Shown: positions 12,046-12,458 of the stretch, in pieces
Position numbering within the stretch: the stretch's first letter is position 1
How the letters are laid out: the number at the start of each line of letters is the position of its first letter
From: Haliotis cracherodii
Lineage: Eukaryota
Direction of reading: 5' to 3'
Assembly (NCBI RefSeq): GCF_022045235.1
Contig: NW_027266308.1
Coordinates: forward strand, 28,768,001 to 28,832,000
Length of the DNA: 64,000 bases
Position numbers and translations under genes: made by a program
The notes under the pieces: model-generated
Told to the model about the DNA's origin: nothing
Seen by the model: only the letters and a program-made list of their open reading frames with translations
Database searches by the model: none

Positions 12046-12458
12046 AGTGAGTGAAGCTAGTGAGTGAGTAAGTAAGGTTTCATGCCGTCTAAGCAACAGT
12101 CATTAACAGGCATTATCAAGTTGTACCCATACCCGTGAAGATCCGGGGTAGAATAGGTCTTCAGCAACCCATGCTTGCTGTAAAAGGCGACTATGCTTGT
12201 CGTAAAAGGCGACTAACAGGATCGGGTGGTCAGGCTCGCTGACTTGGTTGATGCATGTCTTTGATCCCGATTGCGTGGATCGATGCTCATGATATTAATC
12301 ACTGGATTGTCTGGTCCAGACTCAATTATTTACAGACCGCCGTCATATAGCTGGAATATTGCTGAGTGCGGCGTTAAACAACAAACCAACCAACCAACCA
12401 ACCATGCGTCGGGAATGGAACCCGGCGTGACGAGCGAACGCTTTGACCACAGGGCAAC
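12046..12458 (-). mobile_element. SINE family A split by a nested family B copy
   Basis: Family A tail at 12046-12130 resumes as gtcgggaatggaacccggcgtgacgagcgaacgcttt at ~12408. Confidence 0.8.
12131..12400 (+). mobile_element. SINE-like family B, full length, duplicated head module
   Basis: acccgtgaagatccggggtagaatagg...(aacc)n tail. Confidence 0.93.

Follow-up and report, generated by a model that had tools for sequence, protein, structure and literature searches.

The SINE at positions 12130..12403 (forward strand) of the 64,000-nt stretch of Haliotis cracherodii DNA analysed here, hereafter the window, opens with a real, covarying RNA motif. The element is of a SINE type that has been described before, and its head is shared with LINEs and viruses. 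A block to 5′→3′ exonucleases is, tentatively, our most likely explanation of the motif. The head of a SINE is normally a small Pol III RNA. The results given here (the covariation model, the occurrence in viruses and the arrangement in LINEs) bear on the expression of LP-SINEs, a question since 2016, and each of the possible outcomes would be of interest, whether an xrRNA class in cells, a new class of ribozyme or a new kind of translation element. The original prediction, of an unclassified functional RNA motif at the 5′ end of the element, holds in that the motif is conserved, covarying, shared with LINE 5′ ends and without an Rfam family, whereas both mechanisms named with it, a self-cleaving ribozyme and an internal promoter, are weakened.

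The focal copy, which is of LP type, consists of a structured head, a body (12221..12338; BLAST within the window), a LINE-like tail whose stem-loop resembles the 3′ end of this genome's EN-RT-RNase H LINEs (12339..12379) and (AACC)n simple repeats at its 3′ end (12380..12403), all on the forward strand. The SINE is ~255 bp long and TSD-flanked, with a fixed 5′ start that TSD ends and base counts place at 12130..12131 of the focal copy, 6 nt 5′ of the loop U described below. The sequence (g)acccgtgaag, noted earlier as the start of this copy, lies at the shared family start; the family has G-A there, whereas the focal copy has T-A, with T rather than G at +1. No TSD was found for the focal copy, which bears a 22-nt core duplication with the first of its two cores degenerate.

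The family is abundant in the window and in the genome. At least 13 copies or fragments had been counted before; a BLAST search of 12130-12400 against the window returned 17 by our reading of the match list, with tail-only matches of other SINEs kept out of the count. Nine of these reach the common start, namely the eight already listed as full length and one on the minus strand that ends at 57416. With up to two mismatches allowed, the 14-mer of the core occurs 15 times in the window against an expectation of 0.21, and a 29-mer from the head is matched exactly at 19,402 places in the 1.18-Gb genome, with none for the reversed control. By eye, 28 of 30 places share the common start, these being the first 30 exact matches to this 29-mer, which lies downstream of the start, picked by it alone with the 5′ end disregarded. 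Among the 30 best full-length loci, +1 is G in 26, an exact 8-14-bp TSD ends within 2 nt of the start in 19, and the TSD ends exactly before the +1 G in 12.

Heads of full-length copies lie on the plus strand at 10360..10437 (single core, 54.7 bits), 34628..34728 (54.2 bits) and 52845..52944 (45.9 bits), and on the minus strand at 55571..55667 (36.1 bits) and 57322..57419 (50.1 bits), the last being absent from the earlier list. Further minus-strand heads are found at 12768..12845 (single core, 50.2 bits), 25712..25812 (duplicated core) and 46034..46113 (single core, 59.7 bits); the last carries the A-to-G wobble variant reported at 46.1 kb. Degenerate heads occur at 28766..28843 (minus strand, 28.6 bits) and, as a fragment, at 50576..50650 (plus strand, 14.9 bits), and a 5′-truncated head at 30360..30417 (minus strand). 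No host gene could be placed in the window from its ORFs. Among 15 single-core copies, five (L355, L358, L360, L361 and L365; compare window 28766-28843) are cut short within the first pseudoknot, four of them near ATCCGGG, perhaps through an RT stop or as members of an older subfamily. A tandem array with a ~51-bp period is built from the head's first pseudoknot at G000:C1:5446238-5447435, and at L408 the SINE head is doubled head-to-tail.

The fold of the head was modelled on 18 hand-picked representatives, one per family plus three variants of the LINE from the same genome (12 non-viral and 6 viral; families with long loop insertions were left out), aligned with MAFFT without regard to structure. 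RNAalifold on these rows gave a 7-bp P2, the invariant hairpin and, unprompted, a 3-bp P3 directly after P2. With P1 included, 95% of the cells in the model are paired, and 57 double changes were observed, where shuffles gave 17.8 ± 3.5 and slid controls no more than 14; the shuffle disregards relatedness, and the carriers span SINEs, LINEs and viruses. P4, which joins the loop of P3 to the bases after the core TAA, forms 73 Watson-Crick pairs against 51.0 ± 4.5 (0 of 5000 permutations), or 63 against 44.0 ± 4.2 when two near-duplicate LINE rows are removed, and is just 2 bp in three viral rows. P1 forms 81 pairs against 70.4 ± 3.3 (18 of 5000 permutations). On this model, the head is predicted to comprise two tandem H-type pseudoknots and the invariant hairpin. 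The first would consist of P1, one U and P2 with an AGAAUA loop, and the second of P3 and P4 enclosing the hairpin and UAA.

In the focal copy (plus strand), the P1 5′ strand CCCG (12132..12135) pairs, as covariation indicates, with CGGG at 12144..12147. A single conserved U (12136), in a nearly invariant column that pairs in only 9 of 18 rows, would form loop 1 of the first pseudoknot. The P2 5′ strand (12137..12143) pairs with 12156..12162, all seven of its pairs showing double changes; across the aligned rows, only 0-2 nt separate this strand from the P1 3′ strand. Loop 3 (12148..12155) ends in the conserved AGAAT(A), whose columns are invariant, and long insertions occur 5′ of it in other families. 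P3 begins with 3 nt at 12163..12165, whose partner is 12195-12197 or, in the duplicated unit, 12173-12175; 98% of its cells are paired, and its first pair shows double changes in 10 of 18 rows. Within the P3 loop lies the P4 5′ strand CCC of the second pseudoknot (12168..12170), followed by the degenerate first copy of the 22-nt duplication, P3b plus core (12173..12194). The P3 3′ strand, the invariant hairpin GTCG(T)-AARAG-(G)CGAC and TAA occupy 12195..12216, and the P4 3′ strand 12217..12220, CGGG in the family and mutated here to CAGG. In the duplicated subfamily, for which 17 of 30 loci were parsed, mismatches occur in the first core at 16 of these 17, whereas the second core is intact at 13 of them.

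These results modify the structures proposed originally. Of an 8-bp stem, seven pairs are supported as P2, whereas the outer T-A pair occurs in only 9 of 18 sequences, and its A pairs instead in a further helix in 17 of 18. A pseudoknot involving the loop of that stem was correctly anticipated, with the partner across families being the 5′-terminal CCCG rather than a downstream ACCC or TGCT. A closure of CCCGT with ACGGG does appear in the single-sequence MFE fold of one copy, but the 3′ (A)CGGG covaries with the loop of P3 instead. The GTCG...CGAC hairpin followed by TAA stands as described and is invariant in the aligned families. Because its pairs are invariant, they yield no covariation, except at the outer position (U·U in 15 rows, G-C in 2 and G·U in 1 of the 18), and the invariance is partly built in by the search pattern and query. 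Single-sequence folding, which cannot show pseudoknots, gave z = −1.12 (not significant) for the focal copy and z = −2.88 (significant) for a single-core copy. Covariation among homologues, LINE 5′ ends included, supports an unclassified conserved RNA motif without an Rfam family.

By its sequence, the element matches the LP (LINE promoter) SINEs that Matetovici 2016 described in gastropods and oysters (PMC4758252), whose ~70-bp head was then presumed to be a promoter. In that account, the first ~70 bp of LP-SINEs are common to the 5′ ends of Nimb-17_LMi, I-3_DR and RTE-9_CPB, the elements named are Hdi_LP/Hmi_LP, Lsa_2 and Sgl_LP, and section 10 proposes the promoter and draws the analogy to Pr77 (PMC4758252). 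The 'Nimb-17 homology' block of the scallop alignment in its supplementary Fig. S2 contains, by eye, the same AGAAT and hairpin-TAA core, with the same helices possible. Further likenesses are the lack of a tRNA-, 5S- or 7SL-derived head, variable TSDs and 3′ simple repeats. The element is likely to be identical with the Hdi_LP/Hmi_LP family itself, the point of agreement being the 255 bp listed for Hmi_LP (PMC4758252), which is the length of this SINE; the AATATA hexamer named for Hdi/Hmi_LP was not found in its tail. The parts of that account drawn on here propose a promoter and contain no structure, viral occurrence or upstream ribozyme (PMC4758252). Searches for the LP names gave the 2016 paper as the only relevant literature, searches with core 15-mers found no published paper, and none was found on the structure, viral occurrence or upstream ribozyme of the motif, with subscription journals, figures and bioRxiv supplements outside the search.

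A similar motif at LINE 5′ ends had been mentioned in the original prediction, and the motif is present in the 5′ UTRs of I-group LINEs of this genome. The exact 19-nt core occurs in 9 viral and at least 122 metagenome stretches, and the core with its upstream AGAAT in five GTDB contigs that look like host DNA in bacterial assemblies. At the GTDB locus L302 the motif precedes ORF1, with an endonuclease-RT ORF2 as well, and the endonuclease domain of this locus, used as query, led to young LINEs in the same genome as the SINE. In 19 of 20 fetched copies, ORF1 follows the motif at a distance of some 400-550 nt. Since their ORF2 combines endonuclease, RT and RNase H domains, these LINEs are I-group elements, probably of a Nimb-like clade.

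These LINEs start 58 nt upstream of the motif; their first base is the G of a compact HDV-like fold, the last strand of which directly adjoins the motif. This 5′ end (L339:1588-1645) scores 27.5 bits against RF02682 (E=0.0048), below the gathering score of 44, and gives E=0.26 against RF00094; the alignment shows P1 with G1-U, P2, P3/L3, P1.1 and the C of J4/2. Its sequence points to an HDV-like ribozyme with putative self-cleavage before G1, the G at which the copies begin. Directly upstream of the motif, the last strand of the ribozyme is present at 514 of 549 exact LINE-type motifs. All 37 inspected copies, among them the 9 of the first 100 that lack the exact last strand, keep the ribozyme segment, and none is trimmed to the motif start. 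A motif that cut or initiated transcription at its own 5′ end would strip the LINE of its ribozyme within one round of retrotransposition, so this retention counts against both mechanisms offered originally; the LINEs have C where motif-headed elements have a +1 purine, which leaves these mechanisms some room. When 130 metagenome and GTDB loci were searched by regular expression, none had an HDV-like ribozyme upstream of the motif, so the pairing of motif and ribozyme is seen only in this genome's LINEs.

The tail of the SINE resembles the LINE 3′ stem-loop in 18 of 21 central bases (by eye) and is also common to a tRNA-headed SINE in the window. The LINE family examined ends in (ACTC)n and the SINE in (AACC/AAAC)n. 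A short tRNA-headed SINE (window 19477, 27637, 48300, 50340, 61390 and others) shares the LINE-like tail and ends in (ACTC)n, and is probably the closer passenger of the examined LINE.

The motif also occurs in viruses. Six distinct RNA-virus-like contigs carry it whole. In all six it is in sense and close to the 3′ end of the contig, its core following the last ORF of at least 150 codons by 56-175 nt. They encode RdRP_4 (L214), RdRP_3 (L234, L442 and L444), a Peptidase_A21 capsid (L188, with L443 having the same sequence at the motif) and an S-domain coat beside a long ORF without Pfam match (L174). Motif copies are in tandem in two of the six (L174 and L442). A DNA virus contig of 212,482 bp has the motif in the interval between two genes of the same strand, close to an NAD-dependent ligase and ~140 nt ahead of an ORF. 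The viral examples are few, and the core served as the query that found them. A model built from the non-viral rows gives the viral motifs 42-75 bits against 10-22 for core-only look-alikes, missing the divergent first copy in L442. A loose 15-mer scan yielded 109 stretches, among which the full motif was present at 7 loci, and patterns relaxed for hairpin variation gave mostly chance matches plus a single new contig, in which the loop and the outer pair vary. The exact 19-mer also occurs in two phage contigs, which were dropped, as the rest of the motif is absent (21.6 bits). In the DNA virus (L204:6951-7028), the P2 sequence is almost that of the SINE, and a metagenome contig (L073:1340-1519) has successive motif copies ~74 nt apart.

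Four families that start at the motif share one offset, 6 nt before the loop U, and a predominant purine at +1 (G in 26/30, A in 14/19, G in 12/13 and G in 7/8). Scallop heads differ, starting in a ragged run of C, and viral copies have mixed bases at the equivalent position, with a purine in L214 and L248. Three small-RNA libraries from one study, probably of a related organism, contain few reads, mainly in antisense ~30-nt piles, and show no 5′ pile at the SINE or LINE start. In one library, these piRNA-like antisense RNAs of ~30 nt cover the SINE body (L011:1673-1703, 63 molecules) and the LINE motif (L339:1651-1681, 127 molecules).

We propose that the head may be a new class of 5′→3′ exonuclease-resistant RNA, an xrRNA-like roadblock that sets the SINE start. 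Because the +1 purine goes unexplained and the support is at the level of sequence and model, we rate this at somewhat less than an even chance. SINE copies would be transcribed inside host Pol II read-through or intronic RNA, and Xrn1/Xrn2 would degrade the RNA upstream and stall ~6 nt before the core. The ORF2 protein of an I-group LINE would then recognise the tail and reverse-transcribe to the stalled end, giving unit-length copies. In the LINE itself, the 5′ end would be made by the HDV-like ribozyme, with protection of the uncapped RNA falling to the motif; in viruses, the motif would leave a stable 3′-UTR fragment, as with flavivirus xrRNAs. The 5′-OH product of a ribozyme is not attacked by Xrn1. 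Such a block accounts for the viral position, the tandem copies, the fixed offset and the retained upstream ribozyme, the last of which a passive block predicts and a cutter or local promoter does not. Slightly more doubtful is the wider proposal that an xrRNA class has been exchanged among RNA viruses, a DNA virus and animal LINEs and lets SINEs dispense with both promoter and ribozyme.

If the exonuclease block is correct, host 5′→3′ decay would trim read-through RNA to the exact start of the SINE, this genome would hold tens of thousands of copies or more of a chromosomal xrRNA, and retroposon 5′ ends could be defined in a third way. A 2021 review treats cellular xrRNAs as not yet found (PMC8374639).

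Comparison with viral xrRNAs gives a mixed picture. As in classes 1a, 1b and 2 of flaviviruses, class 3 of Solemoviridae and Tombusviridae, and coremin, the viral motifs sit in 3′ UTRs. xrRNAs are located in 3′ UTRs in tandem series (PMC8374639), and they halt the exonuclease at the base of P1 (PMC12397905); the motif likewise shows tandem series, a compact multi-pseudoknot fold (predicted) and a fixed 5′ boundary at the base of its first helix. However, its fold matches none of the described classes, which stands against the roadblock. Classes 1 and 2 have a three-way junction with PK1/PK2, whereas the motif has none and is a tandem H-type fold by covariation; in class 3 the apical loop pairs with the 3′ end, whereas here the loop pairs with the 5′ end; and the two-hairpin layout of coremin is absent. 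Unlike viral xrRNAs, the motif also sits in chromosomal retroelements. Since long insertions in loop 3 are tolerated, this loop is unlikely to be a tight ring.

Other observations also weigh against the roadblock. A stall does not predict the +1 purine, which suits transcription initiation or a cleavage-site preference, and the nearly invariant 19-nt core suits catalysis or factor binding at least as well. A stall might now and then yield LINE copies trimmed to the motif, as seen in 0 of 37. Three small-RNA libraries from one study, probably of a related organism, contain few reads, mainly in antisense ~30-nt piles, and show no 5′ pile at the SINE or LINE start. In one library, these piRNA-like antisense RNAs of ~30 nt cover the SINE body (L011:1673-1703, 63 molecules) and the LINE motif (L339:1651-1681, 127 molecules).

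An unlikely alternative, and the most probable of the rivals, is that the motif represents a self-cleaving ribozyme of a new class or a host endonuclease site (for example for RNase P), cut before +1 with a preference for purines, pyrimidine versions being slow or silent. This would fit the precise start, the +1 purine in four families, the nearly invariant core and the double-pseudoknot architecture, and the C in the LINEs could explain why their upstream ribozyme is kept. Small ribozymes are known from UTRs of linear RNA viruses, paired in totiviruses (PMC13725137). The HDV-like segment retained in every inspected LINE copy remains an objection, and in viruses a cut where the 3′ UTR begins would detach the genome 3′ end, also in L214 and L248 with their purine. 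If the core were inactive, decay would be expected, but LINEs and viruses retain it.

Known ribozymes do not accommodate the motif, in agreement with the failure to fit it originally to HDV, hammerhead or twister. Rfam gave no match to E=10 in 11 diverse carriers, the LINE or window 12000-12900, with twister-sister, pistol and hatchet equally absent, although hatchet, twister, pistol and hammerhead resemble the motif in size and in having a conserved core. By-eye fits to features of HDV, twister, pistol and hatchet failed. Nor did the scan of 12000-12900 place any tRNA or 5S family on the head or return the known small-RNA head that had been named as contrary evidence; tRNA matches in the window fall only on other SINE families. 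The HDV-like ribozymes of LINE 5′ ends (L1TcRz/Pr77, R2, RTE) offer a parallel, as 5′-terminal modules common to unrelated LINEs and short derivatives, with P1 and P2 pseudoknotted in the same order. In contrast to them, the motif has no P3/L3/P1.1 nested between P2 and P1 and no catalytic C before the P2 3′ side. The SINE start and the LINE ribozyme start (window:12131-12143 and L339:1590-1602) are alike in 10 of 11 bases over P1/P2, and TCTTC closes the P2 3′ strand in both. Loss of P3/L3 from an HDV-like scaffold may have given rise to the first pseudoknot, or the likeness may be chance.

Two further rivals have about equal standing, each somewhat less probable than cleavage. The first is the published LP hypothesis of an internal Pol II promoter acting at the DNA level, combined with a second role in RNA like that of the dual Pr77/L1TcRz. 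The 5′-end position, where the head replaces tRNA heads (PMC4758252), and the +1 purine at a fixed offset accord with it, and a dual promoter and ribozyme has precedent (PMC3383444). However, helix sequences vary freely while pairing is kept, and LINE copies that start at the motif number 0 of 37. The occurrence in RNA viruses, where a DNA promoter has no role and the motif stands in the 3′ UTR, weakens this reading further. Pol III is unlikely, because in related families runs of at least four T occur inside the head or immediately behind it, and because there is no match to an A/B-box family.

The second is a cap-independent translation or ribosome-binding element that would serve uncapped LINE RNA and, as a 3′ enhancer, viral RNA, and would bring SINE RNA to ribosomes that make ORF2. 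The Alu head brings RNA to ribosomes making ORF2 protein. A translation element would suit the placement of the motif between the HDV-like ribozyme and ORF1, in viral 3′ UTRs and shortly before the DNA-virus ORF, and the invariant hairpin is suited to factor binding. Ribozyme-linked translation has been reported for viruses and retrotransposons (PMC13725137). This reading leaves the fixed 5′ start and the transcription of non-coding SINEs unexplained, and no Rfam IRES or 3′ enhancer family matches. Finally, a functionless relic of a LINE 5′ end in a bipartite element is largely refuted and highly improbable: bipartite non-autonomous LINE derivatives are common (PMC5786205), but changes are compensatory across unrelated carriers, one core of the duplicated subfamily decays while the other stays intact, and the SINE body is not shared with the LINE examined.

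The LINEs that share the motif merit attention in their own right. Young EN-RT-RNase H LINEs begin exactly with a minimal HDV-like ribozyme of 58 nt that has hardly any P4 (L339:1588-1645, G000:C14, and ~500 further copies). Ribozyme-bearing LINE clades are listed as R1, R2, R4, RTE, Ingi as well as LOA (PMC5786205), and if the Nimb-like assignment holds, an HDV-like ribozyme on such a LINE falls outside these six as listed there. Dense clusters of the LINE, with many copies nested in one another, occur at G000:C2:20.9-21.75 Mb and C6:4.2-4.9 Mb. In a scaffold of a bivalve gill symbiont, a full-length LINE whose 1238-aa ORF2 is intact (L406, G001:C4:518900-525040) lies beside bacterial genes; a search for its TSD gave no clear one, the DNA on its 3′ side is host-like, and the scaffold is probably a misjoin.

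The window also holds a second tRNA-headed SINE with CACCT repeats (11065-11350 and 51887-51958), which fits the description of Haliotis MESC SINEs as tRNA-headed and CACCT-ending (PMC4758252). Minisatellite arrays at 19008-19400 and 60146-61400 contain repetitive open frames that, by their look, are not genes.
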